Assembly (NCBI GenBank): GCA_964587725.1
Contig: CAZPLO010000003.1
Span: 1,135 to 65,134, forward strand
DNA from: an uncultured archaeon
Lineage (GTDB): Archaea; Altiarchaeota; Altiarchaeia; IMC4; SCGC-AAA252-I15
Reading direction: 5' to 3'
Length of the DNA: 64,000 bases
The notes beneath the pieces are model-generated. The model worked only from the letters and a program-made list of their open reading frames with translations, had not been told where the DNA came from and did not search any database. Numbering within the stretch: the first letter of the stretch is position 1; the number at the start of each line of letters is the position of its first letter. The position numbers and the translations under genes were made by a program. Below, piece by piece: positions 3,250 to 58,020 of the stretch.

Positions 3250-3717
3250 TTACTTAAGAACCACCATGTTGGTGAGCCCCCGCCGTCTGCGCTCCAGGAA
3301 ACGCATGGACTCCAGCTTGTCCAACGTCCTCGTCACCTTCACCTTAGACAACCCGGTCTTCTCCCCTATCTCGCTCTGGAACAACGCCCCACCAGCGTCC
3401 GTTATGAGTTTGTACACCGTCTCCTCGTCGCCGTCCAAGGCCGCCAGCTTCTCAGACCACTGCTCCGACGACTCAGCCCTGAACGGCACGGGCTTGAATG
3501 CAAGATACACTCCAGTCAGCAGGATGAATCCCGCGCCTCCGAGTCCCACGTAGAACATCGGCGGCACCTTGAAATGAACCATGTCGCACGACTCCCCGCA
3601 ATCGCAGGACGCGGAGCTTACGTCACTCAGCATGTTCAGGAACCACACCATGGTGAAGCCCATCACCAACGCCACAGCCACCATCAAATAACCTACCCCC
3701 TGCAATCCAACGTTCAT
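3250..3717 (-). CDS. Membrane-anchored winged-helix (MarR-like) transcription regulator with Cys cluster CDCGESCD
   Basis: Two N-terminal TM segments with the Cys cluster between them. C-terminal ETVYKLITDAGGALFQSEIGEKTGLSKVKVTRTLDKLESMRFLERRRRG winged-HTH. Overlaps the cysS stop by 4 nt. Confidence 0.45.
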   Translation of the reverse strand: MNVGLQGVGYLMVAVALVMGFTMVWFLNMLSDVSSASCDCGESCDMVHFKVPPMFYVGLGGAGFILLTGVYLAFKPVPFRAESSEQWSEKLAALDGDEETVYKLITDAGGALFQSEIGEKTGLSKVKVTRTLDKLESMRFLERRRRGLTNMVVLK

Positions 3718-5095: not shown

Positions 5096-5117
5096 TTAGC
5101 GAGGGGAGGGATTCGAA
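5096..5117. repeat. 22-nt exact copy of the tRNA-Cys 3' end (acceptor 3' strand plus T-arm) in the cysS upstream region
   Basis: TTAGCGAGGGGAGGGATTCGAA occurs at 5096-5117 and 5210-5231. Between the copies is a hairpin, GAATCCGC-TAC-GCGGATTC at 5171-5190. Confidence 0.7.
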
Positions 5118-5211: not shown

Positions 5212-5327
5212 AGCGAGGGGAGGGATTCGAACCCTCGGATAATGGCTTGCCGCATGCTTCAGGGCGTTGGAGCCCGTCCGCTTTTTTTTTTGCAGGCCAC
5301 CCCATTAGGCCGCTCTGGCACCCTCGC
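5212..5327 (-). tRNA. tRNA-Cys (anticodon GCA) with an intron of about 42 nt in the anticodon loop (canonical 37/38); CCA not encoded
   Basis: Minus-strand sense: GCGAGGG-UG-CCAG-AGCGGCCUA-AUGG-G-GUGGC-CUGCAA[A8 GCGGACGGGCUCCAACGCCCUGAAGCAUGCGGCA]A-GCCAU-UAUCC-GAGGG-UUCGAAU-CCCUC-CCCUCGC-U. The 7-bp acceptor pairs perfectly. T-loop is UUCGAAU. Anticodon stem GUGGC/GCCAU. U73 discriminator, typical of tRNA-Cys. Folded by hand only. Confidence 0.55.
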
Positions 5328-22431: not shown

Positions 22432-23136
22432 GTGGACCAAAGACTCATAGCGGCGGCGGGCGTTTTAACGGTTTTGGCCGCGCTTTTATTGGCGTCCACA
22501 CACAATCCTACTGGAGGTGGCAGAGTGGCTGAGACACCGGAAACCGATGTGGTGGAATTGTCGGAGCCCTCCACGGGGGGCATTTCCGTCGAGGCTGCGC
22601 TGGCGGAAAGGAGGTCTAGAAGAGAGTATAAGGATCAGCCGCTGACGCTGGAGCAGCTGTCGCAGCTATTGTGGGCCGCGCAGGGGGAGACCAGTCAGTG
22701 GGGCGGCCGCACCGCCCCGTCCGCGGGCGCAACCTACCCGCTGGAACTCTACGCGGTCGTCGGCGACGTGGAAGGACTTCAGCCGGGGGTGTACCGTCAC
22801 ATCCCGTCGGAACACCGGATGGTGAAGACCGTGGACGGCGACGTCCGTGAAGACCTGGCTGCGGCGGCGCTGGGGCAGGAGTTTGTGGCCGAAGCCCCGG
22901 TCGTGTTCGTCATCGCGGCGGTGTATGAACGCACAACGCAGCGTTACGGAGACCGCGGCATAATGTACGTGCACATGGAGGCCGGCCACGCAGGCCAAAA
23001 CATATACCTGCAGGCGGAGTCGCTGGGCCTCGGCACCGTGGCGGTGGGCGCATTCAACCTGGAACAGGTGAGTGGGCTGCTTCAGCTGCCCGACGGCCAG
23101 GAGCCCGTGTATTTATTCCCCGCCGGCGTAGTGTAA
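22432..23136 (+). CDS. SagB-type dehydrogenase / nitroreductase-fold protein with N-terminal membrane anchor
   Basis: RRSRREY, GGRTAPSAGATYPLELY and FVIAAVYERT, typical of the SagB/ThcOx nitroreductase family. Confidence 0.55.
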   Translation: MDQRLIAAAGVLTVLAALLLASTHNPTGGGRVAETPETDVVELSEPSTGGISVEAALAERRSRREYKDQPLTLEQLSQLLWAAQGETSQWGGRTAPSAGATYPLELYAVVGDVEGLQPGVYRHIPSEHRMVKTVDGDVREDLAAAALGQEFVAEAPVVFVIAAVYERTTQRYGDRGIMYVHMEAGHAGQNIYLQAESLGLGTVAVGAFNLEQVSGLLQLPDGQEPVYLFPAGVV

Positions 23137-23139
23137 GGG

Positions 23140-23469
23140 ATGCGTATCTGGGATTTGCCTCCGGAACGGCTGTGCAGGAGCCACCTGCTGGGCGAACACC
23201 GTGAACTCCATGCACTCTGGACGATACTAACAGAGGACAAAAAGGGTTACCGTTGTCACCCGGAGACCAGGCGGTGGGTGGGGAAGCTGAAGGCGCTGCA
23301 CAACCGCCACCGCCTGTTAGCCGAGGAGATGATGTTACGGGGGTACCGGCACAAAAGCCCATTGGATGAGTCGCTCGCTGCGGGAGAACCGGTTCAGACG
23401 GAGTACGTGGACACCGTGGAGGAGCAGGTGAAGAAACTCCGCATGAAAGGCTGCGGCTGCAGGGTCTGA
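23140..23469 (+). CDS. Pyrimidine-dimer DNA glycosylase-like (T4 EndoV/DenV family) small protein
   Basis: MRIWDLPPERLCRSHLLGEHRELHALW matches the N-terminal catalytic region pattern of the family. Confidence 0.45.
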   Translation: MRIWDLPPERLCRSHLLGEHRELHALWTILTEDKKGYRCHPETRRWVGKLKALHNRHRLLAEEMMLRGYRHKSPLDESLAAGEPVQTEYVDTVEEQVKKLRMKGCGCRV

Positions 23470-23500
23470 TTATTTATTGTCTCCATCGTAATCTGTGTCA

Positions 23501-25117
23501 ATGCTTCAGGAGCTCGTGTTCGGGGTGTTCGGGGGATTGGGCCTGTTCATCTACGGCATCCACGCGATGAGCTCCGGCATGCAGAAGGTGGCGGGCGACC
23601 GCCTCCGCTCCATCATAGCGAAGTTCACCAGCAACCGTTTCATGGGCGTACTCGTCGGCGCCGGAACAACCTCTGTCATTCAGAGCAGCAGCATCACCAC
23701 CGTCACCGTCGTAGGCTTCATAAACGCGGGGCTGATGACGCTGACCCAGGGTATAGGCGTCATAATGGGCGCCAACATAGGAACCACCATCACCGCCCAG
23801 CTGATAGCATTCAGGCTCACCGACTACGCCCTCCCAATAGTCGGATTGGGGAGCCTGCTGTTCGTTCTCGGCAGGAGCAAGAGGCAGAGGGACCTGGGGG
23901 AGGCGGTGTTCGGCTTCGGCATACTGTTCCTGGGGTTGAGCATCATGACCGGCGTCACCAAGCCCCTGGGGGGTACGCCGATGGTCCACACACTGTTCGC
24001 GTCGCTGCAGGGCAGCCCGCTGCTGGCGCTGCTCGCCGGCCTGCTGGTGACGATGATGGTTCAGAGCAGCAGCGTCACCGTCGGCCTAACCATAGCCCTG
24101 GCCGCGGCCGGCCTGCTGGATTTGAGGACGTCCATCTTCATAATATTCGGCGACAACATAGGAACCTGCATCACGGCGTTGATTGCGAGCGTTGGCACCA
24201 ACCTGTCGGCGAAGAGGGCGGCGCTCGCCCACGTCATGTTCAACGTCCTGGGCGTCTGCATGGCCTTCATACTGCTGCCGGTCTACTACTCTGTGGTAAC
24301 CTCCTTTTCCGGAGACATCGCCCGTCAGATAGCCAACACCCACACCCTGTTCAACGTCGTAAACACCATGATATTCCTGCCCTTCGTTCCCTTCTTCGCG
24401 GCCATGCTCAAGCGGGTTCTCCCCGGCGAGGACGTGGCGGACGTGATGAAGCCCAGGCACCTGGACCGGCACCTGCTGTCTACGCCCACGGTCGCAATCG
24501 AGGCGGCGAGGAAGGAGCTGGTGCACATGACGTCGATGGTGCGCTCCATGTTCGACCAGACCATGGAGTCGTTTTTCGACGGCGGAGACTCCCTGATGAA
24601 GAAGGTGGTTAAGACGGAGGTGGGGGTGGACTCCCTCCAGGATGCCGTAACCCACTACCTGGTGGACTTGACCCAGGAGGAACTGTCTGTGCAGCAGTCT
24701 GAACGCATTCCCCGTCTACTGCACAGCGTCAACGACCTGGAGCGCATAGGAGACCACGCCGTGAATCTGATGGAGCTGGTGGAGGACAAGAACACCAGCA
24801 GGTGCGTGTTCTCCGACAAGGCCAGGGAGGAGCTGCGGAGACTGCAGACGGTGCTGTCGGAGATGTTCGACGACACCGTGTTGACTCTGGGGGAAGACGA
24901 CATCCAGGCCGCCCGCCGCGTGCTGGTGAACGAGGAGGAAGTGAACGCACTCACTTTAAAGTTCAGGGACAACCACGTGAAACGCCTGGAGTGCAGGGAA
25001 TGCAACATCAACGCCGGCGTAATCTACACCGACATACTCATGAACCTGGAGAAAATCGGAGACCACCTGTCCAACATCGCCCAGGCCACCCTCGGGTCCC
25101 TGGGCATAAGAACCTAA
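23501..25117 (+). CDS. Na+/phosphate symporter (NptA family) with C-terminal PhoU-like domains
   Basis: Duplicated Na/Pi transporter repeats (GANIGTTITAQL / GDNIGTCITALI) and a C-terminal PhoU-like helical domain. The track start at 23495 is GTG; ATG at 23501. Confidence 0.8.
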   Translation: MLQELVFGVFGGLGLFIYGIHAMSSGMQKVAGDRLRSIIAKFTSNRFMGVLVGAGTTSVIQSSSITTVTVVGFINAGLMTLTQGIGVIMGANIGTTITAQLIAFRLTDYALPIVGLGSLLFVLGRSKRQRDLGEAVFGFGILFLGLSIMTGVTKPLGGTPMVHTLFASLQGSPLLALLAGLLVTMMVQSSSVTVGLTIALAAAGLLDLRTSIFIIFGDNIGTCITALIASVGTNLSAKRAALAHVMFNVLGVCMAFILLPVYYSVVTSFSGDIARQIANTHTLFNVVNTMIFLPFVPFFAAMLKRVLPGEDVADVMKPRHLDRHLLSTPTVAIEAARKELVHMTSMVRSMFDQTMESFFDGGDSLMKKVVKTEVGVDSLQDAVTHYLVDLTQEELSVQQSERIPRLLHSVNDLERIGDHAVNLMELVEDKNTSRCVFSDKAREELRRLQTVLSEMFDDTVLTLGEDDIQAARRVLVNEEEVNALTLKFRDNHVKRLECRECNINAGVIYTDILMNLEKIGDHLSNIAQATLGSLGIRT

Positions 25118-25138
25118 ACCAGCCGTATGCTGTCCAGG
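25106..25138. repeat. 33-bp direct repeat copy 1 (ATAAGAACCTAAACCAGCCGTATGCTGTCCAGG), covering the nptA stop
   Basis: Identical to 25788-25820. Confidence 0.8.
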
Positions 25139-25209
25139 GGCTACCGACATAGCATGGACGAGTCCCTAGCCATACCATGTCACATCCAACATCGTTTCTC
25201 TGTGGTTGG

Positions 25210-25479
25210 TTATTTGTATGATTTGTACCATCGTTCGTATTCTTTGTGGTTTTGGAAGCAGCGTATTATGTGTGTAGTTTCGCCTTCGTGGTGGTAGATT
25301 ATTCTAGCCTGTCTGGTGACTTTTTCGACGTGGTGGGGTATTCCGTGTCTCATGTGTCGTCTCGGAGGCATGGACTGGATTTTTTCGAAGTGTTTAAGGA
25401 AAATCTGTTTCAGGTCCGGGGGCATTGCCTTAAGCTGTTTCTTGGCTGTTTCAGAGAACAGTAACGCCATCCTATCCAT
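25210..25479 (-). CDS. parE: Type II toxin, RelE/ParE family
   Basis: TAKKQLKAMPPDLKQIFLKHFEKIQSMP...ARIIYHHEGETTHIIRCFQNHKEY matches the ParE/RelE fold signature. Overlaps the antitoxin stop. Confidence 0.65.
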   Translation of the reverse strand: MDRMALLFSETAKKQLKAMPPDLKQIFLKHFEKIQSMPPRRHMRHGIPHHVEKVTRQARIIYHHEGETTHIIRCFQNHKEYERWYKSYK

Positions 25480-25717
25480 TGAGTTCGTCCCTTACTTCGT
25501 CGAGGGTGTATGTCTTAACCCTGCCGGCTCTTATCTCGTCCATCTCCACTTCAACGGCTTTGTGGACCAGCCTTAACTCCTCCTCCTCGAGCATTCTGTC
25601 GTAGGCGGTTATCGCCTGCCTAATAACCTCTGTCTGGTTGCCGGCGTATCCCTTCTCGATAATCCTCTGGATGGCCGACTCATACGGTGCACCCAAATTG
25701 ACGTTCAATGCAATCAC
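25472..25717 (-). CDS. parD: Type II antitoxin, ParD/ribbon-helix-helix-like
   Basis: 81 aa, MIALNVNLGAPYESAIQRIIEKGYAGNQTEVIRQAITAYDRMLEEEE. Lies upstream of the toxin with an 8-nt overlap. Confidence 0.55.
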   Translation of the reverse strand: MIALNVNLGAPYESAIQRIIEKGYAGNQTEVIRQAITAYDRMLEEEELRLVHKAVEVEMDEIRAGRVKTYTLDEVRDELNG

Positions 25718-25787
25718 CTATGTATACTCAATGTGCATTCAACTATATAAATAATGTGTATCTGTTCACTTGCACCTGATTCATAGG

Positions 25788-25820
25788 ATAAGAACCTAAA
25801 CCAGCCGTATGCTGTCCAGG
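25788..25820. repeat. 33-bp direct repeat copy 2, covering the aCPSF1 stop
   Basis: Identical to 25106-25138. Confidence 0.8.
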
Positions 25821-27682
25821 TTTCTCGGCGCGGTTGCTTCGTAGCCGAACATGTCGTATAACGTCATGGCGAGGTTGTTTGTTTTGCTGGCTTCACCGTG
25901 CATGATGATCGCCCTCTTGGGTCGTGGATTAATCTTTTTCGCGTACCCCAGCAGCTGCCGGCGGTCGGCGTGTCCGCTGAACCCGTCCACCGTCTTGACG
26001 CCGATGTTCACCTTCAGGCCCTTGGTGCGGCCGTTTTCTTCAATAGCGATTTCGTTCAGCCCGTTCTGTATCCTCCGCCCTAAGCTGCCTTCGGCCTGAT
26101 ATCCTACGAAGGTTATCATGTTCTTGGGGTCATCCGCCCACGCCTTGAAGTATTCTACGCTGGGGCCGCCCGTCATCATGCCTGACGTCGCCAAAACCAC
26201 GCAGGGGTCGTCGCTCTCTATTATCGCCGGCCGCTCCTTGTGCTCCACCTTCTCGAACGCGTCCACGAGGAACGGGTTGTGGCCGTTGAATATCCTGTGT
26301 TTGATGTGCTTCTTCAGATACTCCGGGTAGGAGGTGTGTATTGCCGTCGCCTCCCATATCATCCCGTCCAAATACACGGGAACGTCGAGTTCGCCGTAGC
26401 GGTACGCGTTCTCCAAAACCATCATCACCTCCTGGCTGCGGCCGACGCTGAACACCGGCACCAACACCTTCCCCCCTCTCTTAACCGTCTTCTTTATGGT
26501 GTTTATGAGGAGGCTTTCCGCGTCCCTTCTCTTAGGCTGCGCGTCGTATCTTCCGCCGTACGTCGACTCCATAATCACTGTCTCAACCCGGGGGAAGTCG
26601 TAGTTTGCCGCCTCCAATAATCGCGTGTCCCCGAACTTGAAGTCTCCAGTGTACACGAGGTTGTGTAGTCCCTCTCCCACGTGGAAGTGGCATACGCTGC
26701 TCCCCAGGATGTGGCCCGCATTGTATAACGTCAAGTGTATGTCCGGTGTGATGTCCGCCACCTCCCCGTACTCCAAGGGGATGGTGTGCTTTATCATCTC
26801 CCGCACCTCCTTACTAGTGAAGGGGAGCTCGTTCTGTCCTTTAACTCCTATTTCAACGGCGTCCAAAACCAGCAGAGCCATAAGGTCTCTGGTAGGCTCC
26901 GTGCAGTATATGGGTCCGTCGTACCCGTACTTGTACAGGTACGGTACGAAGCCGCAGTGGTCCAGGTGGGCGTGCGATATCACAACCGCATCCAACTCGC
27001 TTATCGCCAATTTCACGGCGCGGAAGTCCGGGAACCGGTTCGTGTCCTGCGCCGCAACGTTTATGCCGCAGTCTATCAGCACGTTGCTGGCGGGCGTCTG
27101 CAGCAGGACCGAAGAACGGCCGACCTGCTGTGCGCCTCCCAATGGGGTGACGCGTATCCAGTCGCATTCAGCGTCCGGTTTACGGTAAATCTTCTTCCCC
27201 ACGTTTTTGAGTATCTTCTGCCGCTCCTTCGCGTTCTCGAACAAAGTCTTCCGTATGGTTCGGACGGTGTCGGACTGCAGCGGCGGCTTCCTCAGCAGTT
27301 TTGGGTTCCAGTGGGTCGCCTTGGTTATCTCGTCGAGGGTGCTGCCGTGTTTGCCGATGACCAGGCCGAGCTTCTCCGCCTCTATCCTGACTTCCCCGAA
27401 GTATTCGTCGAATTCGATGTCTACGATGTTGGCTTCCTCTGGTATTATCTCCTCAATCATCCGCTTGGCTTCGGCAGGCTCGATGAGTGATTTGGATGTG
27501 CTTCTGACGATGACCCGCTTCTTCAGGGAGGTGGCGAGATTCCGCACTTCGTTGCTGTTCTCCACGAAATACGGCATGTCGTCTGTGTACAGTATGACCT
27601 TCGGTCCTTCCACGTCGACCTTGGCTATTTTGCCGTCGGGCGCCGTCTCCTCTACGATGCTCTGTATCTCCTTAAATTCCAT
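25796..27682 (-). CDS. Archaeal CPSF1-type beta-CASP ribonuclease (KH domains plus MBL/beta-CASP; FttA termination factor)
   Basis: 628 aa. N-terminal KH domains, HAHLDHCG metallo-beta-lactamase motif and a beta-CASP region. Confidence 0.85.
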   Translation of the reverse strand: MEFKEIQSIVEETAPDGKIAKVDVEGPKVILYTDDMPYFVENSNEVRNLATSLKKRVIVRSTSKSLIEPAEAKRMIEEIIPEEANIVDIEFDEYFGEVRIEAEKLGLVIGKHGSTLDEITKATHWNPKLLRKPPLQSDTVRTIRKTLFENAKERQKILKNVGKKIYRKPDAECDWIRVTPLGGAQQVGRSSVLLQTPASNVLIDCGINVAAQDTNRFPDFRAVKLAISELDAVVISHAHLDHCGFVPYLYKYGYDGPIYCTEPTRDLMALLVLDAVEIGVKGQNELPFTSKEVREMIKHTIPLEYGEVADITPDIHLTLYNAGHILGSSVCHFHVGEGLHNLVYTGDFKFGDTRLLEAANYDFPRVETVIMESTYGGRYDAQPKRRDAESLLINTIKKTVKRGGKVLVPVFSVGRSQEVMMVLENAYRYGELDVPVYLDGMIWEATAIHTSYPEYLKKHIKHRIFNGHNPFLVDAFEKVEHKERPAIIESDDPCVVLATSGMMTGGPSVEYFKAWADDPKNMITFVGYQAEGSLGRRIQNGLNEIAIEENGRTKGLKVNIGVKTVDGFSGHADRRQLLGYAKKINPRPKRAIIMHGEASKTNNLAMTLYDMFGYEATAPRNLDSIRLV

Positions 27683-27724: not shown

Positions 27725-28405
27725 TTATTTTGCCACGGCCTTTTGCGTCAGGCTTTCGACTTCCTCGTCGCTGTATCTCCTGAAGCCGTCTTTGGTGATT
27801 GTGACCAGTTCCATGCCGTCTCCGGTGTACGCGTCCCTTGAAAGGGCGCTCTTCAACGCCTTCAACGCCACGGGAATGTTCTCTTCGACCGTTTTGTCTT
27901 CGCTGTACTCCATCTCCAACACGCCGTAGGCCATGGGGCTTCCGCTTCCGGTCGCGGCCATCTTCTCCTCGATGAGTCCGCCTATGGGGTCGAGCGTGTA
28001 CAGCCTGGACTCGCCCTTCAGGTGGCCGCCTATGAGCAGCTGCACCAGGTAGGGGAATATCTTGTTGCCCTGCAGTATGTTCGAGAGCAGGACGCTCACG
28101 GCCTTGGGGTTCATTTTTTCGCCGTTGTTCATCTCGTACAGCTTGGCTTCGGCCTGAATCAGTCTCATCAGGCTTTCAGCGTCTCCCACGCTGCCCGCCA
28201 CCGTTGCCCCCACGTAGTCGTTTACGTTGAAGCTCTTCTGCGCCCTCTTGCTGGCTATGAAGCCTCCCATGCTCGCCCGCCTGTCGGTGGCGAACACTAT
28301 CCCGTCACTGCACGTTAACCCGATGGTCGTAGTGCCCTTCAAAGTCTTAGATTCCAAAGAAACCGCCTCCAGTAGAAAAAAGGCTTTTCTAAAATTCTTG
28401 TACAT
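27725..28405 (-). CDS. psmB: Proteasome beta subunit
   Basis: TTTIGLTCSDGIVFATDRRASMG (propeptide followed by the catalytic Thr). Confidence 0.85.
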   Translation of the reverse strand: MYKNFRKAFFLLEAVSLESKTLKGTTTIGLTCSDGIVFATDRRASMGGFIASKRAQKSFNVNDYVGATVAGSVGDAESLMRLIQAEAKLYEMNNGEKMNPKAVSVLLSNILQGNKIFPYLVQLLIGGHLKGESRLYTLDPIGGLIEEKMAATGSGSPMAYGVLEMEYSEDKTVEENIPVALKALKSALSRDAYTGDGMELVTITKDGFRRYSDEEVESLTQKAVAK

Positions 28406-51101: not shown

Positions 51102-51624
51102 ACTCCAGGACCTCCGTGAACTCAGGCGTCCAATCCCTTTCCAGAATGTGTTTTCCGCCGGTCTGGAGCCAATCGACTATCGCTTCCACATCAACCCCTT
51201 CCGTGTTGTCCAACTCCAACACGTTCCCGCACCTTTTAAGGCTCTCATATAATATGACTCCTTCATATTCTGCTTCCAGGTTTTCCATAATCTTCCCGTC
51301 CGCGTAGCCGCGTTCCTTCATCCGTTTCTCCAGCAGGCGGGGGTCACACCGCAGCACCAGGACGTGGGTGGGGTCGAGTAGGTGGCTTAGCAACCCGTCC
51401 AATATGGTATTCGATTCCACTAGCCTCCAAACCTTCTCCTTCAGTCTGCCGGCGTCCACCACTTTGGTGTTCCTCTCTTCGTCGAACCTGTCGCACAGGC
51501 CTTCGCGTTCGACCAACAATGTCAATTCCATGACCTTCCACCCGAGGCGTTCCCCCAGTTTCCGGGCCAGCGTGGTCTTCCCCGTGCAGGGGGTGCCGGT
51601 GACCGCCAATACATTGTACGCCAT
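51079..51624 (-). CDS. P-loop kinase, Fap7/adenylate kinase isoenzyme 6-like
   Basis: VTGTPCTGKTT Walker A. 181 aa. Confidence 0.55.
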   Translation of the reverse strand: MAYNVLAVTGTPCTGKTTLARKLGERLGWKVMELTLLVEREGLCDRFDEERNTKVVDAGRLKEKVWRLVESNTILDGLLSHLLDPTHVLVLRCDPRLLEKRMKERGYADGKIMENLEAEYEGVILYESLKRCGNVLELDNTEGVDVEAIVDWLQTGGKHILERDWTPEFTEVLESRGRAPT

Positions 51625-51677
51625 TTTTTAACCGCTGAAGCGAATACTTTAACAGTATTTGGGGAGGCGACTATATT

Positions 51678-52019
51678 ATGTCCAACTGGAAGCTGCAGGT
51701 GCTGTTTTTGGCTCTGCTGGTGGTGTCGGATGCGGCAGCCGCCGCCACTGAGATGAAAGACATAGCCTGCAATGTCATCAAACCCATCTACGAAACCCTG
51801 AAGACCATCGCCCCCGCCCTGGTCCTGTTGATGTTCACCTACGGCGCCGTCAAGTACGCCCTCGCATCCGACGACCCCGGCGGCCGGAAGCAGGCTAAAA
51901 ACATCATGATACACGCCATCATCGCAGGCCTCATCATCGGCATCATATTATGGTTGATGGATGATGTTCTAGGACTCCTTAGCCAAGACTTGAAGAACTG
52001 TCTAGGCATAACGGCTTGA
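51678..52019 (+). CDS. Paralog 1 of the secreted two-helix hairpin family (SADDPGGRKQ loop)
   Basis: Sec-type signal peptide; mature IACNVIKP..helix1 APALVLLMFTYGAVKYALASDDPGGRKQAKNIMIHAIIAGLIIGIILWLM helix2..KNCLGITA. SD-like GGGAGG lies upstream. Confidence 0.6.
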   Translation: MSNWKLQVLFLALLVVSDAAAAATEMKDIACNVIKPIYETLKTIAPALVLLMFTYGAVKYALASDDPGGRKQAKNIMIHAIIAGLIIGIILWLMDDVLGLLSQDLKNCLGITA

Positions 52020-52083
52020 TGTTGAATCTGTTTGTTGTTTTTTTAACCTGTGAAGTGAATACTGTAACGGAGGCGTTGTTGTT

Positions 52084-52464
52084 ATGGTTAGGCGGTTGCT
52101 GGTTTTGCTGGCTGTTTTCACGCTGCTGGCTGTAGCAGCGTTTCCCGCATCCGCGGCGACAAACAAGTTGAAGGAAAACTTCTGTGAGATAGTGGTGTTG
52201 CTGCATAAGGTCCTGACGTATGTTGGGCCCACGATAGTGCTGCTGATGTTCCTCTACGGCGGCATCAAATACGTTTATTCCGCCGAGGACCCCGGCGGCC
52301 GGAAGCAGGCTAAAAACATCATGATACACGCGCTCATAGCGGGCATACTGCTGGGGCTCGCTGTGGTCATCATCGAGTTCGTGATCCCCACCATAAAAAA
52401 CGACATTGATGCCTGCTACAGGCTAGCTGGTGCGGGGGCCAGGGTCGACATTCAACCCACCTGA
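52084..52464 (+). CDS. Paralog 2 of the hairpin family
   Basis: Signal MVRRLLVLLAVFTLLAVAAFPASA; LLMFLYGGIKYVYSAEDPGGRKQAKNIMIHALIAG. Its 5' region including the signal peptide is identical to paralog 3. Confidence 0.6.
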   Translation: MVRRLLVLLAVFTLLAVAAFPASAATNKLKENFCEIVVLLHKVLTYVGPTIVLLMFLYGGIKYVYSAEDPGGRKQAKNIMIHALIAGILLGLAVVIIEFVIPTIKNDIDACYRLAGAGARVDIQPT

Positions 52465-52529
52465 TTAGACTCCTGGTTGGTTGTTTTTTTAACCTGTGAA
52501 GTGAATACTGTAACGGAGGCGTTGTTGTT

Positions 52530-52862
52530 ATGGTTAGGCGGTTGCTGGTTTTGCTGGCTGTTTTCACGCTGCTGGCTGTAGCAGTGTTTCCAGCATCCGC
52601 TAATATGGAAAAGAGCCTTGACGACACGCTCTGCGACATCCTGAAGGCCATAGGGTATGCGTTGGGAACCGTCGGCCCCATGCTTGTCGCATTGATGTTC
52701 CTCTACGGCGGAGTCAAGTACGTTTCTTCCGCAGACGACCCCGGCGGTCGCAAGCAGGGCAAGACCATATGCATACATGCGGTGATAGGCGGCATAATCA
52801 TAGCATTGGCTCACACGCTGGTGACTATGGTGGTTAATGTTCCATGCGACTTCTACTCCTGA
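52530..52862 (+). CDS. Paralog 3 of the hairpin family
   Basis: Same leader as paralog 2; LMFLYGGVKYVSSADDPGGRKQGKTICIHAVIGG. Confidence 0.6.
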   Translation: MVRRLLVLLAVFTLLAVAVFPASANMEKSLDDTLCDILKAIGYALGTVGPMLVALMFLYGGVKYVSSADDPGGRKQGKTICIHAVIGGIIIALAHTLVTMVVNVPCDFYS

Positions 52863-52918
52863 CCGCGCAAACGGTTTTTTAACGCATAAGCGGAATATAT
52901 AACAGCGAGGGGCTTCAA

Positions 52919-53284
52919 ATGCGTATCAGCGGTTTCAGGGTCTTCCAGCTAACAATAATCGCATTATACCTGCTGTCTTGTTTTTCAACGGCGGTTGACG
53001 AGTTCGCTTTAAGGGATTCCTTCTGTGGCGTAATCAACGAAATAGGCGACGTATTGGAGAAAGTCGCCCCGGTCCTGGTGCTGCTGATGTTCACCTACGG
53101 CGGCGTCAAATACGTGTTCTCCGCGGACGACCCCGGCGGCCGGAAGCAGGGGAAGATGATATGCATATACTCCATTATCGGCGGAATCCTGATAATCCTC
53201 ACATGGGAGATGATAAAGCTAATATTCGGTTCCCTACCCCAAAATTTCCGATGCCCTACAACACCTTGGATGTCGAACCTATAG
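52919..53284 (+). CDS. Paralog 4 of the hairpin family
   Basis: LLMFTYGGVKYVFSADDPGGRKQGKMICIYSIIGG. Confidence 0.6.
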   Translation: MRISGFRVFQLTIIALYLLSCFSTAVDEFALRDSFCGVINEIGDVLEKVAPVLVLLMFTYGGVKYVFSADDPGGRKQGKMICIYSIIGGILIILTWEMIKLIFGSLPQNFRCPTTPWMSNL

Positions 53285-53425
53285 GACTAATATTCTGTTC
53301 CATCCCATATGATCTCTGGTGCCCTAAGGGTTTTTACTGGCCATGATTTCTAGGCAGCCCCAAAGTCCGTCAAAATCTTTTTTTAACCTGTGAAGCGAAT
53401 ATTTAATCACCTCAACGGTGAACCC

Positions 53426-53758
53426 ATGAACAGAGACAACCTACTCCATATTCTCATGCTGGTGGCGGTTCTCGCGGCATCCGTCGACGGAGCATCCGCT
53501 AACCTGCACTCCAAGGTCTGCCCTATTCTGGAGGCGTTCATCGACGTGTTGGAGACCATAGCTCCGGCGTTGGTTCTGCTGGTGTTCACCTACGGCGGCG
53601 TCAAATACATTTCGTCGGCGGACGACCCCGGCGGCCGGAAGCAGGGTAAATCCATACTGATACACGCCATAATCGGCGGCATAATAATAATTATAGCCCG
53701 GTTCGTCGTGGGGATTGTGTTCTCAGGATGGGGCGACCAATGCCCGGGGGTTCTCTAA
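53426..53758 (+). CDS. Paralog 5 of the hairpin family (first gene of a five-gene operon)
   Basis: LLVFTYGGVKYISSADDPGGRKQGKSILIHAIIGG. The track start is 53390; ATG at 53426. Confidence 0.6.
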   Translation: MNRDNLLHILMLVAVLAASVDGASANLHSKVCPILEAFIDVLETIAPALVLLVFTYGGVKYISSADDPGGRKQGKSILIHAIIGGIIIIIARFVVGIVFSGWGDQCPGVL

Positions 53759-53760
53759 CC

Positions 53761-54135
53761 ATGCGGGGTTTATATTCAAACACCAGGGTGGGGTTGAAGG
53801 CGGCGGCGGCCGTCCTTCTTTTACAGTCGGTGTCAGCCACCACGGACATTGCCTTGGCTTTCAAGAATGCGCCGTGCATGATAATCGGCCAGGCATACGG
53901 TGTCGTCAACACGGTCGGCCCCGCCCTGATACTGGTCATGATGTTCTATGCGGTGGCAAAGTACGCGTACAGCGCGGACGACCCCGGCGGCCGGAAGCAG
54001 GCCAAAACCATATTCATCCACGCCATCATCGCGGGTATGTTCTTCGCACTGGTGGCCATAGTCTTCAGGATACTGGAAACCAACATTAGCTGGCTGTTCA
54101 AGGCCGGGAATCTCTGCTCGGGGGTTACTCTATGA
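53761..54135 (+). CDS. Paralog 6 of the hairpin family
   Basis: LVMMFYAVAKYAYSADDPGGRKQAKTIFIHAIIAG. The ATG is 3 nt after the paralog 5 stop. Confidence 0.6.
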   Translation: MRGLYSNTRVGLKAAAAVLLLQSVSATTDIALAFKNAPCMIIGQAYGVVNTVGPALILVMMFYAVAKYAYSADDPGGRKQAKTIFIHAIIAGMFFALVAIVFRILETNISWLFKAGNLCSGVTL

Positions 54136-54482
54136 GGACAAGAAACCTCATGCATGCTCTGACCCTGGTTTCACTGCTTACGTCCGGATCCAGTGTGTCG
54201 GGCGCATCGAACGCCATACACACGGTGCCGTGCAAACTATTGGGTGGCCTGTTCTCGGCGCTCACCACCATCGGCCCGTCCCTGGTGTTGTTGATGATGG
54301 TCTATGGAGCCGCCAAGTACGCGTTCAGCGCGGACGACCCCGGCGGCCGGAAGCAGGGGAAGACCATATTCATCCACGCAATCATCGGGGCCGTCATTAT
54401 GGGGCTCATATACATAATAGTTAAGGCTGTATTGGGTGCCTCATACGGTGACTATTTATGTTCGGGGGTGAAGTTCACGTAA
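54132..54482 (+). CDS. Paralog 7 of the hairpin family
   Basis: LLMMVYGAAKYAFSADDPGGRKQGKTIFIHAIIGA. Start overlaps the previous stop (ATGA). Confidence 0.6.
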   Translation: MRTRNLMHALTLVSLLTSGSSVSGASNAIHTVPCKLLGGLFSALTTIGPSLVLLMMVYGAAKYAFSADDPGGRKQGKTIFIHAIIGAVIMGLIYIIVKAVLGASYGDYLCSGVKFT

Positions 54483-54483
54483 A

Positions 54484-54831
54484 ATGTCGCTCGCACACAA
54501 GATTAAGTGGGTGGCGCCAACCGTCCTAATGTTCCTGTTGGTGTTAAGCCTGTTGGCGCCCACGGTGTCTGCATCCTACCTGGGCCCAATAACAACATTC
54601 TTAAAATCTTTAATCAACTCTATTCGCATAATAGGGAACTCAATCGCAGTCGTAATGTTCATCTACGGGGCGGCCAGGTACGTCTACGCATCCGATGACC
54701 CCGGCGGCCGGAAGCAGGCCATAAGCATATGCATAGCCTCGGTTGTGGCGTTGATAATCATCTTTATAGCGGAGTCTGTTATCGGCGCTATCTGTGCGTC
54801 GATGGGGCCTGACTGTAATCCTGTTAGCTAA
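54484..54831 (+). CDS. Paralog 8 of the hairpin family
   Basis: VVMFIYGAARYVYASDDPGGRKQAISICIASVVA. Confidence 0.6.
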   Translation: MSLAHKIKWVAPTVLMFLLVLSLLAPTVSASYLGPITTFLKSLINSIRIIGNSIAVVMFIYGAARYVYASDDPGGRKQAISICIASVVALIIIFIAESVIGAICASMGPDCNPVS

Positions 54832-54832
54832 A

Positions 54833-55150
54833 ATGAGGTATAAAATAGCGTATGCGGCGGCTTTGCTGGCTTTAATCTCAGCCGGCGTTCAGGCCACAAC
54901 CGTCGACGCAGCCGGCATAATAGCGAATGTCATATGCGACCTGGTGCCTGAGGTCATAAACCTGGCTTACGTTCTAGCGTTGCTGATGTTCATCTACGCG
55001 GGCGCCAAGTACGCGTTCAGCGCGGACGACCCCGGCGGCCGGAAGAAGGCGAAGTCGATTGCGGTCCAGGCGATTGTGGGTTTCCTGATAGTCGGCGTGT
55101 CGAAGGCCCTGGTGGAGGCCATAGCCGGTGCAGGCAACGTCTGCCCCTAA
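54833..55150 (+). CDS. Paralog 9 of the hairpin family
   Basis: LLMFIYAGAKYAFSADDPGGRKKAKSIAVQAIVGF. ATG at 54833 (track 54794). The stop overlaps the aglB stop convergently. Confidence 0.6.
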   Translation: MRYKIAYAAALLALISAGVQATTVDAAGIIANVICDLVPEVINLAYVLALLMFIYAGAKYAFSADDPGGRKKAKSIAVQAIVGFLIVGVSKALVEAIAGAGNVCP

Positions 55151-58020
55151 CCTGTTAAAATCGTCTCTGAAGCACTGGTGGTGGATGCGAAGCCGTCGTA
55201 GCTTATCTCATAGGACCTTACGAACCCCCAGCTGAAGTCTCCGTCGGGGCTGCCGTCGCCGTCGTAGTCTGGAACCAGGCGGAAGTGCTCCAGCGGCTCG
55301 ACCTCCCTGTTGTACAGCCCCAAGGCCCTGTACTCATCCAGGTACCTGCCGAGGTACAGGCGGGTAATCATGAAGTCGTTAAACTCTTGTGGAACGTAAA
55401 CAAGGGTTCTGAACTGCGGCATCCTGCAGATGCTCCCCTCCGGCAGCTGCTTCCAGTTCAACGCGCAAGCCATTATACTGGGTATTCTCTGCTCGTCGTA
55501 TCCCACCAAGGGGACTACGCCAAGGAGTGATGCGTCGTTGGCGTCCCTCCAACTGTTCCACGGTATCCTGTTCCCGTACGGGCCGATGACGGTTATGTCC
55601 GCTATGCTGTCCTCCACTATCTCGAACACTACTCCCGCGATGTAGCCCTGGCACCCGAATACCACCTGTTTGACTCGCCTGAAGTTGCCTTCGTCGTCGA
55701 CCACCAGCTGCTCCTCCACCTGGCTCTGGTCCGGGAGGAAACTGCACTGGACGTAGTTTTTGAAGGACCCTGGAGTTACGTTCTCTATGACGCCGGTGGC
55801 TATGAAGTGCAGTGCGCTGCCCTTCGGCACCATAGTCCAGTCTATGGTCACGTAGTTCAACCCCATCCCCCGTTTCTCGTAAACCTCGTTATACTCTTCA
55901 ACTATCTTGAAAGCCTCTTCCTCGCTGGTCTTGTTGACGAAGAAGCGGGCGACGTCCTGTATCTCATAGTAGTCGGCCTGCAGGTTGTCTATGAGCACCG
56001 GCCGCTGGCTCACGCTGGTGAACCAGTGGCCGTAGTCCCACCACGTCAGTATCGCGTCCCCCGGGTCGGTGTTCTGCTCGTGCCATTGGAGTGCGGGCTC
56101 CCAGTAGTATCTGTCGCTGGTGGCGCCCATGTGCATGACCTGGTAGCCCACGAACTTGTTATACTGCGTAGCCCCAAGAAGGGGGACGTAGAACACGGGT
56201 ATGAACAGCACCATGATGGCGCCCACCACCCGCAGGCTCTCCAAATCCTCCCTTTTAACCACCGCGAACAATCCTATGGTGGCTCCCAATGCTGTCACGG
56301 CTGTGCTGGACGCGAAAATCCATGCGCTCTTATGGTATGCCCCCCACAGCATCGGCAGGCTCCACGTAAGCAGGAACAGCGCCCCCACGCTACCCTTCCT
56401 GTACACCAGGTACGCGAGCACCGGAATCATCATCAGCCCGTACAGTAATGCTATGCCGTAGCGGTTGTAGCCCTGCGCCAGGAACTCCTGGAACGACCCG
56501 GCAAGCGGGTTCTGCTCCGAAACGGTCATGTGCACGACGCTCCTGGTTCTGGCGGACATCAACCCGTTGATGACGAAATCTATCATACTGGAGGGGGTGA
56601 TGAAGAATGTGAACGCCACTGTCCCAGCCACCAAGGCGACCACACCCAAAACCATTATGTTCTTACCCATCAGGTTCACCGTCCTGCTCTCCACCGAATC
56701 CCCTGATACCGTGTCCTCCCCGTACATGCGCACCCTCAATAACTCCAGTACGATGGACGCGCCCACAGCCGCTATTATCGGGTATACGGCGTTGGGCGTC
56801 ATGTCCGGGAGCGCCGGCAGCCCGCCCCTCTCATGGAGTATGAGGCCGCCGCCCAACTGCGCAATAAAAACGGGAATCAGTATGTACGGTAGCGCCTCCA
56901 CGGCGTTGCGTTTGTGCAGGAAGTTGACGAACGCGTACGCGGTCCCGAAGGCGCCCAGGGTGAGGAACGCGTACTGGGCTCCCCCCCACGCCACATTGAG
57001 CATGAGGAACGCCACGCCCGAGTAGGCAGCGTATTTGAAGCTGCGGCGGTGGTATCCCGCGAAGAACAGGTAGAGGGTGCTGACGAGCAGGAACATTCCC
57101 AGGGCGTCGTCTTCGCTGTTCGTCGCCACAGCCTTCATCGCGAAGGCTGGGCTGAGTATCAGCATGAACGCGGCCATGAACGCCGCCACCTTGTTGTACG
57201 GCCGCATGTCCGTGAACATCTCCTTCACCAGCAGGTACATAATCACCACCGTGAACGCCGATATGGCGCCGGGCAGCAGCATCGCCACGTCGTGCAGGCT
57301 GATTCCGAACGGCTCCAGCGCCAGGGCCAGCGACGAGTAAAGGACGGGCGTCATCATCCTCGTCGACGACTGGTCTAAGCCGTACATGCCCGCACGCCCG
57401 CCCATTGCAGACGGGTCGTTGCTGTGGGCCAGCCCTCCTAGCAGGGGATAAACCAGCGGGTCGAATTCAGGCGGGTATCCGCCGTCGTATATGCCCCGCA
57501 TCCACTTGTAATGCCAGTAGGGGTCGAGCGCGGCCAAATAATCTGTTTTCGCAGGCGCCATGTGGGTTATCATCCCCGACAGGAACAGCGCCGCCACGCC
57601 GGCCACCTCAGCCTTCACTACCCCATGGTAGGAGAGCGAGTACCCTAAAGCGAACACCGCCGCCACCGCGCTGAAGTACGTGTAGTCCTCGTTCAACGGG
57701 AACCCTATGGTGTTGCTGTAGTGTGAAAACAGCGCCGTTAAAAAAAGCAGGACGGGTATGCCGATGCTCCAGTAGTCCTTCTTCAGCCTCTTGTCTCTCA
57801 GAATAGTGGCGGCGGTCCACAGGAACAGCGCCGCCATCATCAATGGTGTGCTGTCTCGCAGGAACCCCCCACTCAACGGTTTAACGGACGCCAGAACCAG
57901 TGCGGCCAGCGGCGCAAGGAACAGGGGCCTGTCAAGGTGTTCGCCGACTTTCCCGAGGCCGTCGACGGGGAGGCTGACGGAAACCTCCTTCTTCTTTTTC
58001 CTCCTCTTAGAAGCCATCAC
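55147..58020 (-). CDS. aglB: Archaeal oligosaccharyltransferase AglB (STT3 homolog)
   Basis: 957 aa, 13 TM N-terminal domain, WWDYGHW (WWDYG) catalytic motif. Confidence 0.85.
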   Translation of the reverse strand: MMASKRRKKKKEVSVSLPVDGLGKVGEHLDRPLFLAPLAALVLASVKPLSGGFLRDSTPLMMAALFLWTAATILRDKRLKKDYWSIGIPVLLFLTALFSHYSNTIGFPLNEDYTYFSAVAAVFALGYSLSYHGVVKAEVAGVAALFLSGMITHMAPAKTDYLAALDPYWHYKWMRGIYDGGYPPEFDPLVYPLLGGLAHSNDPSAMGGRAGMYGLDQSSTRMMTPVLYSSLALALEPFGISLHDVAMLLPGAISAFTVVIMYLLVKEMFTDMRPYNKVAAFMAAFMLILSPAFAMKAVATNSEDDALGMFLLVSTLYLFFAGYHRRSFKYAAYSGVAFLMLNVAWGGAQYAFLTLGAFGTAYAFVNFLHKRNAVEALPYILIPVFIAQLGGGLILHERGGLPALPDMTPNAVYPIIAAVGASIVLELLRVRMYGEDTVSGDSVESRTVNLMGKNIMVLGVVALVAGTVAFTFFITPSSMIDFVINGLMSARTRSVVHMTVSEQNPLAGSFQEFLAQGYNRYGIALLYGLMMIPVLAYLVYRKGSVGALFLLTWSLPMLWGAYHKSAWIFASSTAVTALGATIGLFAVVKREDLESLRVVGAIMVLFIPVFYVPLLGATQYNKFVGYQVMHMGATSDRYYWEPALQWHEQNTDPGDAILTWWDYGHWFTSVSQRPVLIDNLQADYYEIQDVARFFVNKTSEEEAFKIVEEYNEVYEKRGMGLNYVTIDWTMVPKGSALHFIATGVIENVTPGSFKNYVQCSFLPDQSQVEEQLVVDDEGNFRRVKQVVFGCQGYIAGVVFEIVEDSIADITVIGPYGNRIPWNSWRDANDASLLGVVPLVGYDEQRIPSIMACALNWKQLPEGSICRMPQFRTLVYVPQEFNDFMITRLYLGRYLDEYRALGLYNREVEPLEHFRLVPDYDGDGSPDGDFSWGFVRSYEISYDGFASTTSASETILTG

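Follow-up and report, generated by a model that had tools for sequence, protein, structure and literature searches.

How can a pair of small genes settle between two convergent genes and leave the end of each intact? The question is raised by a toxin–antitoxin (TA) pair in a 64,000-nt stretch of DNA, called here the window (contig CAZPLO010000003.1 of the uncultured altiarchaeal assembly GCA_964587725.1). The pair lies between a gene for a Na/Pi cotransporter–PhoU fusion and the gene for the ribonuclease aCPSF1, and is bounded on both sides by the same 33 bp in direct orientation. Our answer is that a foreign TA cassette was probably inserted here recently, duplicating its target without a dedicated recombinase, and that it has been retained by addiction. 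Coordinates are positions in the window, and L-numbers are labels of the compared loci and contigs. The locus is built as follows.

23495..25117, plus strand: Na/Pi cotransporter–PhoU fusion of 540 aa (earlier called nptA), converging on the cassette (PF02690 1.6e-66, PF01895 2e-30, TIGR00704 260 bits)
25106..25138, no strand: direct repeat copy 1, 33 bp, with the three last sense codons and TAA of the Na/Pi cotransporter–PhoU gene, then a displaced 21-nt aCPSF1 3′ end
25139..25787, minus strand: inserted cassette of 649 bp, with promoter and likely operator, antitoxin, toxin and ∼70 nt of 3′ sequence
25788..25820, no strand: direct repeat copy 2, 33 bp, with the aCPSF1 TAG stop and final 7 1/3 codons (on the minus strand)
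25796..27682, minus strand: aCPSF1 (FttA), a beta-CASP ribonuclease (TIGR03675 907 bits)

The repeat and the gene ends it carries

The 33-mer (ATAAGAACCTAAACCAGCCGTATGCTGTCCAGG) had been reported as two perfect copies, at 25106-25138 and 25788-25820, and both are perfect on re-inspection. A search allowing up to three mismatches gives no further match, and 100 shuffles give 0 matches. The base preceding the repeat is C in copy 1 and G in copy 2, and the base following it is G and T, respectively. Because the neighbouring bases differ on both sides, the length of 33 bp is exact and the edges are sharp.

Each copy completes one of the flanking genes. As stated in the initial annotation, copy 1 supplies the stop codon of the transporter gene, the open reading frame (ORF) running through ATA AGA ACC to a TAA at 25115-25117. 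Copy 2 was said to provide the stop and the last eight codons of aCPSF1. The stop is there (TAG, 25796-25798, minus strand) and the codon count was nearly right, the copy holding seven complete codons and a single base of the next. Copy 2 also holds 8 nt (ATAAGAAC) that match the end of the transporter gene. If the repeat is collapsed to a single copy, CTAA results, in which the two stop codons share 2 nt. Relatives retain NLDSIRLV, or a sequence close to it, at the C-terminus of aCPSF1; therefore, the aCPSF1 part of the repeat is native and the copy on the transporter side is a displaced duplicate. Since the flanking genes probably shared stop codons, only an insertion that duplicated them could leave both genes intact.

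The inserted segment has a G+C content of 44–53%, against 56–65% in the flanking genes. The insertion is taken to be recent, because the repeats are perfect and the G+C content has not drifted towards that of the host. Thus the central claim of the initial annotation, a TA cassette inserted between convergent genes with duplication of the target, gains support from several sides: the lower G+C content, the absence of the cassette from 14 relatives, homologous cassettes in unrelated contexts, the recurrence of flanking duplications in the cassette family, and an empty site with a single copy in Methanospirillum.

The repeat in the reads

Repeat, insert and repeat might be an assembly artefact or a chimera of strains, as the window comes from a metagenome-assembled genome (MAG) and 33 is a common k-mer size. 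The reads were consulted through Logan contigs, which are independent k=31 assemblies made from the raw runs SRR7048219 and SRR7048220. One contig coming from the transporter side (L025, SRR7048219) ends exactly 30 nt into the 33-mer, and so do two contigs coming from the aCPSF1 side (L134, SRR7048219; L135, SRR7048220). A unitig is expected to end where the next 31-mer has two predecessors, and a population holding only the empty site would yield a single unbranched path. Since the k=31 contigs end where a 33-nt repeat forms a branching node, the repeat is present in the reads and does not stem from the MAG assembler. Three contigs from two runs thus reach the expected branch point from both sides. 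A mixture of strains without the duplication would produce a bubble rather than a duplicated segment, and a cultured Methanospirillum shows the same arrangement in its closed genome. An artefact is essentially excluded.

The inserted cassette

The 649-bp insert matches the ∼650 bp with an own promoter that had been described, and the two ORFs assigned to toxin and antitoxin exist as claimed. No other ORF of significance is found in the insert, and there are no Rfam matches in 24900-26000. The insert contains the following.

25210..25479, minus strand: toxin gene; longest ORF 89 aa, or 86 aa from the homologue-supported ATG at 25470; predicted RelE/ParE-superfamily fold
25472..25717, minus strand: antitoxin gene; longest ORF 81 aa from a GTG; ParD-like ribbon-helix-helix
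25730..25751, minus strand: promoter region conserved across the cassette family, with TATA box and inverted repeat
25146..25181, minus strand: imperfect hairpin following the toxin gene on its 3′ side (non-significant; z-score of the entire stretch −1.34)

Homologues place the antitoxin start at a TTG (25708) preceded by GGTGA, which gives 78 aa. A TATA box, TTTATATA (25744-25751 on the minus strand), precedes the antitoxin start codon by about 35 nt, and an inverted repeat, AATG-N2-CATT, lies at 25730-25739. Fourteen loci of the family share both elements ahead of the antitoxin, and from this conservation the inverted repeat is likely the operator. The hairpin downstream of the toxin may mark the end of the transcript, a weak assignment.

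Identity of the toxin and the antitoxin

Profile hidden Markov models (HMMs) do not confirm the ParE and ParD labels first given to the pair. The toxin has no Pfam or NCBIfam match at expect (E) values up to 0.1. The antitoxin scores just under the thresholds of its best matches, which are ParD models (PF03693, 19.5 bits with a cut-off of 21; TIGR02606, 30 bits with a cut-off of 46.2). Look-ups of the exact 89-aa toxin and 81-aa antitoxin return no record. The 42 toxin homologues are 51–71% identical, nearly all 86 aa long and nearly all unnamed, although some records of the Joint Genome Institute (JGI) say RelE; most have neither a name nor a precomputed Pfam domain. When they are scanned as single proteins, Pfam Gp49 is matched by 31 of the 42 (best 1.7e-5) and ParE_toxin by 17 of the 42 (best 2.6e-4). 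PF03693 is likewise matched by six of seven members of the antitoxin family (best 5.6e-4), and the best profile match of the antitoxin in the PDB is the ParD protein 7b22 (E 0.43). Viral contigs scanned with the toxin profile give no match.

A sequence-profile search of the PDB with the toxin returns noise only, so that a fold search was needed. The AlphaFold model built from the family alignment has a predicted local distance difference test (pLDDT) of 89 and a predicted template modelling score (pTM) of 0.79. Foldseek against the PDB gives a probability of 1.00 for YafQ, YoeB, RelE/RelK, the RelE of M. jannaschii and ParE alike, with a best E of 2.8e-4 and template modelling (TM) scores of 0.68–0.73. 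Ranks 1–19 are held by YafQ, YoeB, RelE-type or HigB proteins, plus Cami1, and include 6n90, deposited as a ‘YoeB/ParE toxin’; crystallised ParE toxins of ParDE-type systems first appear at rank 20. In the toxin family, E52, R59 and Y81 are invariant and H78 and K79 nearly so, a set that we take to resemble the catalytic residues of YoeB, that is, a ribonuclease (RNase) active site. Judged by the modelled fold, the toxin is placed in the RelE/ParE superfamily and is probably RNase-like. For the ‘ParE-family’ assignment this means that the superfamily fold stands, whereas the ParE label is too specific, YafQ, YoeB and RelE ranking above ParE. By analogy with these enzymes, the toxin most likely cleaves mRNA on the ribosome.

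The cassette resembles the type II TA systems of this superfamily (RelBE, YefM-YoeB, DinJ-YafQ and ParDE) in its two-gene operon with the antitoxin first, in its small proteins (78–81 and 86–89 aa) encoded by adjacent or overlapping genes, and in combining a toxin of RelE/ParE fold, a ParD-resembling antitoxin and a promoter inverted repeat. It differs from them in that its toxin passes no curated HMM, in that a ParD-like antitoxin is paired with a toxin that has RNases, not ParE, as its top structural matches, and in that the family is archaeal and uncharacterised. For annotation, the pair points to a branch of the RelE/ParE superfamily that is archaeal, uncharacterised and missed by present HMM libraries.

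Related cassettes and their flanks

A profile scan of metagenome contigs yielded 80 loci with the TA pair, which dereplicate at 95% nucleotide identity to 57 clusters, 51 of them evaluable. The DNA upstream of the antitoxin was compared with that downstream of the toxin on the same strand, with the opposite strand as control. Of the 80 loci, 27 show significant same-strand similarity of the flanks. At least 11 loci have exact direct repeats of 21–35 nt, while the opposite-strand control gives at most 15 nt. Exact flanking repeats of at least 20 nt occur in 7 of 51 clusters, against 2 of 184 non-overlapping control positions (odds ratio 14, p = 4e-4).

The repeat sequences differ between loci and are therefore host-derived. 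Some are short and sharp like that of the window (24, 29 and 30 nt in L104/L106, L092 and L095, respectively). The shortest, a direct repeat of 16 nt, flanks the cassette of L029, where the last five codons and the stop of a convergent pdxT-like gene lie opposite the last codons of the toxin (3252-3285 of that locus). This arrangement implies that the insertion replaced the C-terminus of the pdxT-like host gene. Others are long and diverged; in L036, L040 and L074 the long repeat consists of the last ∼60 codons of gatB.

L036 and L090 contain arrays. In L036 (961-3533), the final ∼60 gatB codons occur three times, and these copies set a 201-aa ORF apart from the TA pair. In L090 (994-3541), a HicAB pair and the TA pair are separated by three copies of a 200–290-nt repeat.

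The extent of the mobile unit emerges from comparison of the cassettes themselves. The closest relative of the window cassette (L022/L023) is 72% identical at the nucleotide level over 25214-25761 only, that is, the promoter and both genes, and has different neighbours. Cassettes 90–99% identical stand in differing contexts in three sets (L041/L044, L035/L038 and L065/L085/L089), their similarity reaching from 51–91 nt upstream of the antitoxin start to 8–270 nt past the toxin. Because similarity ends so near the genes, the mobile unit comprises little more than the promoter and the two genes, and the near-identical cassettes in different contexts are evidence of recent movement of such a putative minimal unit. 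No conserved cassette ends, terminal inverted repeats or target motifs were found among the copies of the family.

Filled, decayed and empty sites in Methanospirillum

One member of the family can be followed through several states of the same site. The closed genome of M. purgamenti (CP077107; L106, 99% identical to L104) has the cassette between hisG and hisI, with a perfect 24-mer, AGATGTTATCCGGGAATGGTCGGT, on either side. In three further Methanospirillum sp. contigs (L129, L131 and L133; HisG 88% identical), the hisG–hisI spacer measures 246 nt and carries one copy of the motif (AGATATTATCCGGGAATAATCATT), and the flanks of this spacer align with the outer flanks of the M. purgamenti locus. 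The expectation that genomes without the insert should show a single repeat is thus borne out for a homologous cassette, but not for the window locus, where no empty site was found.

M. hungatei JF-1 was also considered as an empty site and rejected, since a decayed copy of the cassette is present there. The same site (2330-3000 of L115, corresponding to 3487-4599 of L106) retains the promoter and the first ∼50 antitoxin codons with a 2-nt deletion, leaving the antitoxin a pseudogene; the remainder of the antitoxin has been deleted along with the entire toxin, and divergence has affected both copies of the repeat. The two 24-mers of M. purgamenti are identical even though the surrounding spacer has diverged between species, which suggests selection or gene conversion acting on this near-palindromic motif.

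Recombination machinery and known mobile elements

An alternative origin has to be weighed here: the 33-mers could be attL and attR of a larger tyrosine-integrase element integrated in the 3′ end of aCPSF1, from which internal deletions spared only the TA pair. As att sites typically do, the repeats take in the 3′ end of a gene that is conserved and essential, and the arrays of L036 and L090, with mostly synonymous differences between copies, fit successive integrations at one site. A tRNA 3′-end duplication around a 92-nt remnant, also in the window, speaks for the same origin. The machinery, however, is missing. Neither the insert nor the ∼12 kb to each side of it contains an integrase, an integrase fragment or a transposase; the ORFs in these flanks are housekeeping genes or lack a Pfam match. 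Among 132 ORFs beside family members, integrase is not one of the 25 commonest Pfam families (families with a single ORF not being listed), and a DDE transposase is seen twice. The insert lacks terminal inverted repeats, its sole inverted repeat being a non-terminal 10-nt pair at 90%; the cassette copies share neither an imperfect inverted repeat at their 3′ ends nor an attP-like sequence. Independent decay is unlikely to stop repeatedly ∼70 nt upstream of the antitoxin and tens of nt past the toxin, and 8 of the 33 bp extend beyond aCPSF1 into a junction seen only in this lineage. With no integrase, no common attP and cassette boundaries that are repeatedly minimal, a remnant of an integrase-borne element is the less likely origin, and we consider it improbable without dismissing it.

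The tRNA in question is intron-containing and lies at 5212-5327 on the minus strand (Rfam 45.7 bits, 44-nt intron; ARAGORN found no tRNA in the window). The 22 nt at its end (TTCGAATCCCTCCCCTCGCTAA) are found again at 5096-5117, 114 nt downstream and immediately ahead of the start of cysS, with only 92 nt between the two copies. The arrangement looks like an att-type scar left by an integrated element that was lost or has shrunk.

Elements that carry an integrase and att repeats, with their integrase-less, cis-mobilisable derivatives, likewise have repeats formed by a host gene 3′ end, leave the target intact, and form arrays at one site as some members of the cassette family do. They differ from the cassette in that it measures 0.65 kb, has no integrase and no common attP, and is flanked by repeats of 16 to about 290 nt. 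Transposons and casposons also bound their inserts by a target duplication, with one copy at the empty site, as in the Methanospirillum member. Their known target duplications measure 2–15 bp and have a fixed length for each element; a casposon has a Cas1 integrase, terminal inverted repeats and a duplication of 14–15 bp. By contrast, the cassette duplication is 33 bp and differs in length among family members, and terminal inverted repeats, transposase and Cas1 are all lacking. The variable repeat length and the lack of terminal repeats and transposase thus argue against a classical transposon.

Integron cassettes, including the TA cassettes of superintegrons, are similarly minimal units of one or two genes in which TA pairs are frequent and stabilise arrays, and the L090 array places TA cassettes (HicAB, then this family) between similar repeats. 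Unlike integrons, the window has no attC-like or common recombination site and no integron integrase, and the repeats are host coding sequence. Ends-in (Campbell-type) integration and capture at a staggered break both produce a host duplication of arbitrary length without an element-encoded enzyme, which fits the variable repeat lengths and the unconserved cassette ends. They are, however, processes of a general nature that have not been described as a means by which TA cassettes spread.

Flanking genes and altiarchaeal relatives

Searches with the aCPSF1 protein lead to MAGs of Altiarchaeota, the nearest 87% identical. The comparison covers 14 altiarchaeal-type relatives with an aCPSF1 identity of at least 71%. 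One further gene belongs to the comparison.

27725-28405, minus strand: psmB, upstream of aCPSF1

The order psmB–aCPSF1 is kept in 13 relatives, all those whose contig extends upstream of aCPSF1. Downstream of aCPSF1, the TA pair is present in 0 of the 14, and in no relative among the 14 fetched does the transporter gene stand beside aCPSF1. The interval between a nitroreductase gene (22432-23136 in the window) and aCPSF1 is a variable spot in Altiarchaeota. In L005 and L012 the two genes converge directly as a tight pair without genes between them; L003 has two 485-aa paralogues there and L011 a 480-aa repeat protein; in the window (22432-25795) a pyrimidine-dimer glycosylase gene, the Na/Pi–PhoU gene and the TA pair intervene. 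The closest homologue of the Na/Pi cotransporter–PhoU protein among 5.8 billion proteins, itself excluded, is 58% identical, too distant to be used as an anchor, and its C-terminus reads ...LGSLKIGNNHIKNSS instead of ...LGSLGIRT in the window. Many of the top matches are from Omnitrophota bacteria and Nanoarchaeota. Judging by these matches, the transporter gene itself may have been acquired.

The order of events could accordingly be reversed: the cassette might first have stood beside aCPSF1, and the block of glycosylase and Na/Pi–PhoU genes might have come in afterwards, together with the second 33-mer, from a donor with a transporter–aCPSF1 junction. The nearest relative (L005) lacks the whole block, its nitroreductase converging directly on aCPSF1, and the transporter has no close homologue, with many best matches bacterial or nanoarchaeal. 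Yet the G+C content of the block is host-like and that of the cassette is not, and the TA pair stands beside aCPSF1 in no relative. A donor with the transporter–aCPSF1 junction would still be required, so that the same event is merely moved elsewhere. Such a sequence of events is possible, less economical, and in our estimate very improbable.

Farther along the window (51600-55200) about nine paralogous ORFs of 113–135 aa are arranged in tandem, with a repeat unit of 330–495 bp. The three ORFs tested all match Pfam T4SS_pilin (PF18895), and the array adjoins the AglB/STT3 oligosaccharyltransferase gene (55147-58020, minus strand).

How the cassette may have entered and persisted

The insertion of a foreign cassette with duplication of its target can be pictured as follows. 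The 649-bp type II TA cassette would have entered where the stop codons of the transporter and aCPSF1 genes overlapped (CTAA), and 33 bp of the target would have been duplicated, so that each flanking gene kept a complete 3′ end. Two routes are conceivable. In the first, DNA would be captured at a staggered break and enclosed by fill-in; in the second, a small circle composed of the cassette and a short piece of the target would integrate by ends-in recombination. Both would yield repeat, insert and repeat, with host-derived repeats of variable length and no need for a dedicated recombinase. Target-site duplication and recombination between short repeats, the two origins named in the initial annotation, both agree with the data. 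Once in place, the ParD-like antitoxin is expected from knowledge of the family to neutralise the toxin and to repress the TATA promoter of the cassette through AATG-N2-CATT. DNA between direct repeats is normally lost by recombination; here loss of the TA pair would be penalised and the insert would persist. Where genes share their ends, only insertions that duplicate these ends would be tolerated. A repeat-flanked cassette could moreover loop out and re-enter homologous sites of related genomes, which would explain long diverged repeats whose differences are mostly synonymous.

Several observations weigh against this reading. In about two thirds of the homologous loci, a flanking repeat is undetectable. 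Long diverged repeats measure 70–290 nt at 73–94% identity, and in several of them the differences between copies are mostly synonymous, with ratios of non-synonymous to synonymous change (dN/dS) of 0.05–0.16 over few sites, calculated for clear-frame cases only (L036a, whose repeat includes the stop codon, was left out). Where such repeats form arrays, they look more like repeated integration at a single site by an element that carries its own gene end. The 22-bp tRNA duplication around 92 nt implies that integrated elements here can shrink to almost nothing. At the window locus itself, besides the lack of an empty site, the presumed ancestral transporter–aCPSF1 junction is seen in no other genome, and a wobble-degenerate search of metagenome contigs with the 33-mer found neither an empty nor a filled form of it. 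Finally, the chemistry of insertion is deduced wholly from its end products.

For the window locus, recent insertion with target duplication nevertheless keeps the greater weight. Its extension to the family is a different matter. It is tempting to propose that an archaeal family of TA cassettes spreads without an element-encoded recombinase, duplicating 16 to ∼300 bp of host DNA at each entry, with the repeats allowing excision as a circle and re-integration at matching sites in related genomes, and addiction protecting the otherwise unstable insert; this we offer tentatively, as a conjecture that may well fail.

Significance for the spread of toxin–antitoxin cassettes

To our knowledge, the movement of stand-alone chromosomal TA pairs is largely undescribed. 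TA pairs are among the most horizontally mobile genes of prokaryotes (Makarova et al. 2009, PMC2701414). A search of the literature found no account of TA cassettes bounded by long host-derived duplications. The window locus offers a clean recent event with both junctions at base resolution; as a single locus it is neat but modest. Its interest is raised by the recurrence, across archaeal lineages, of a recombinase-free and duplication-flanked pattern. If this pattern holds more widely, it would provide a testable route of cassette spread, and it would explain both how inserts survive between direct repeats and why tightly packed gene ends are left undamaged. Recombinase-free spread, if true of this family and perhaps of small cassettes generally, would provide a concrete mechanism by which chromosomal TA pairs attain the exceptional mobility long noted for them.

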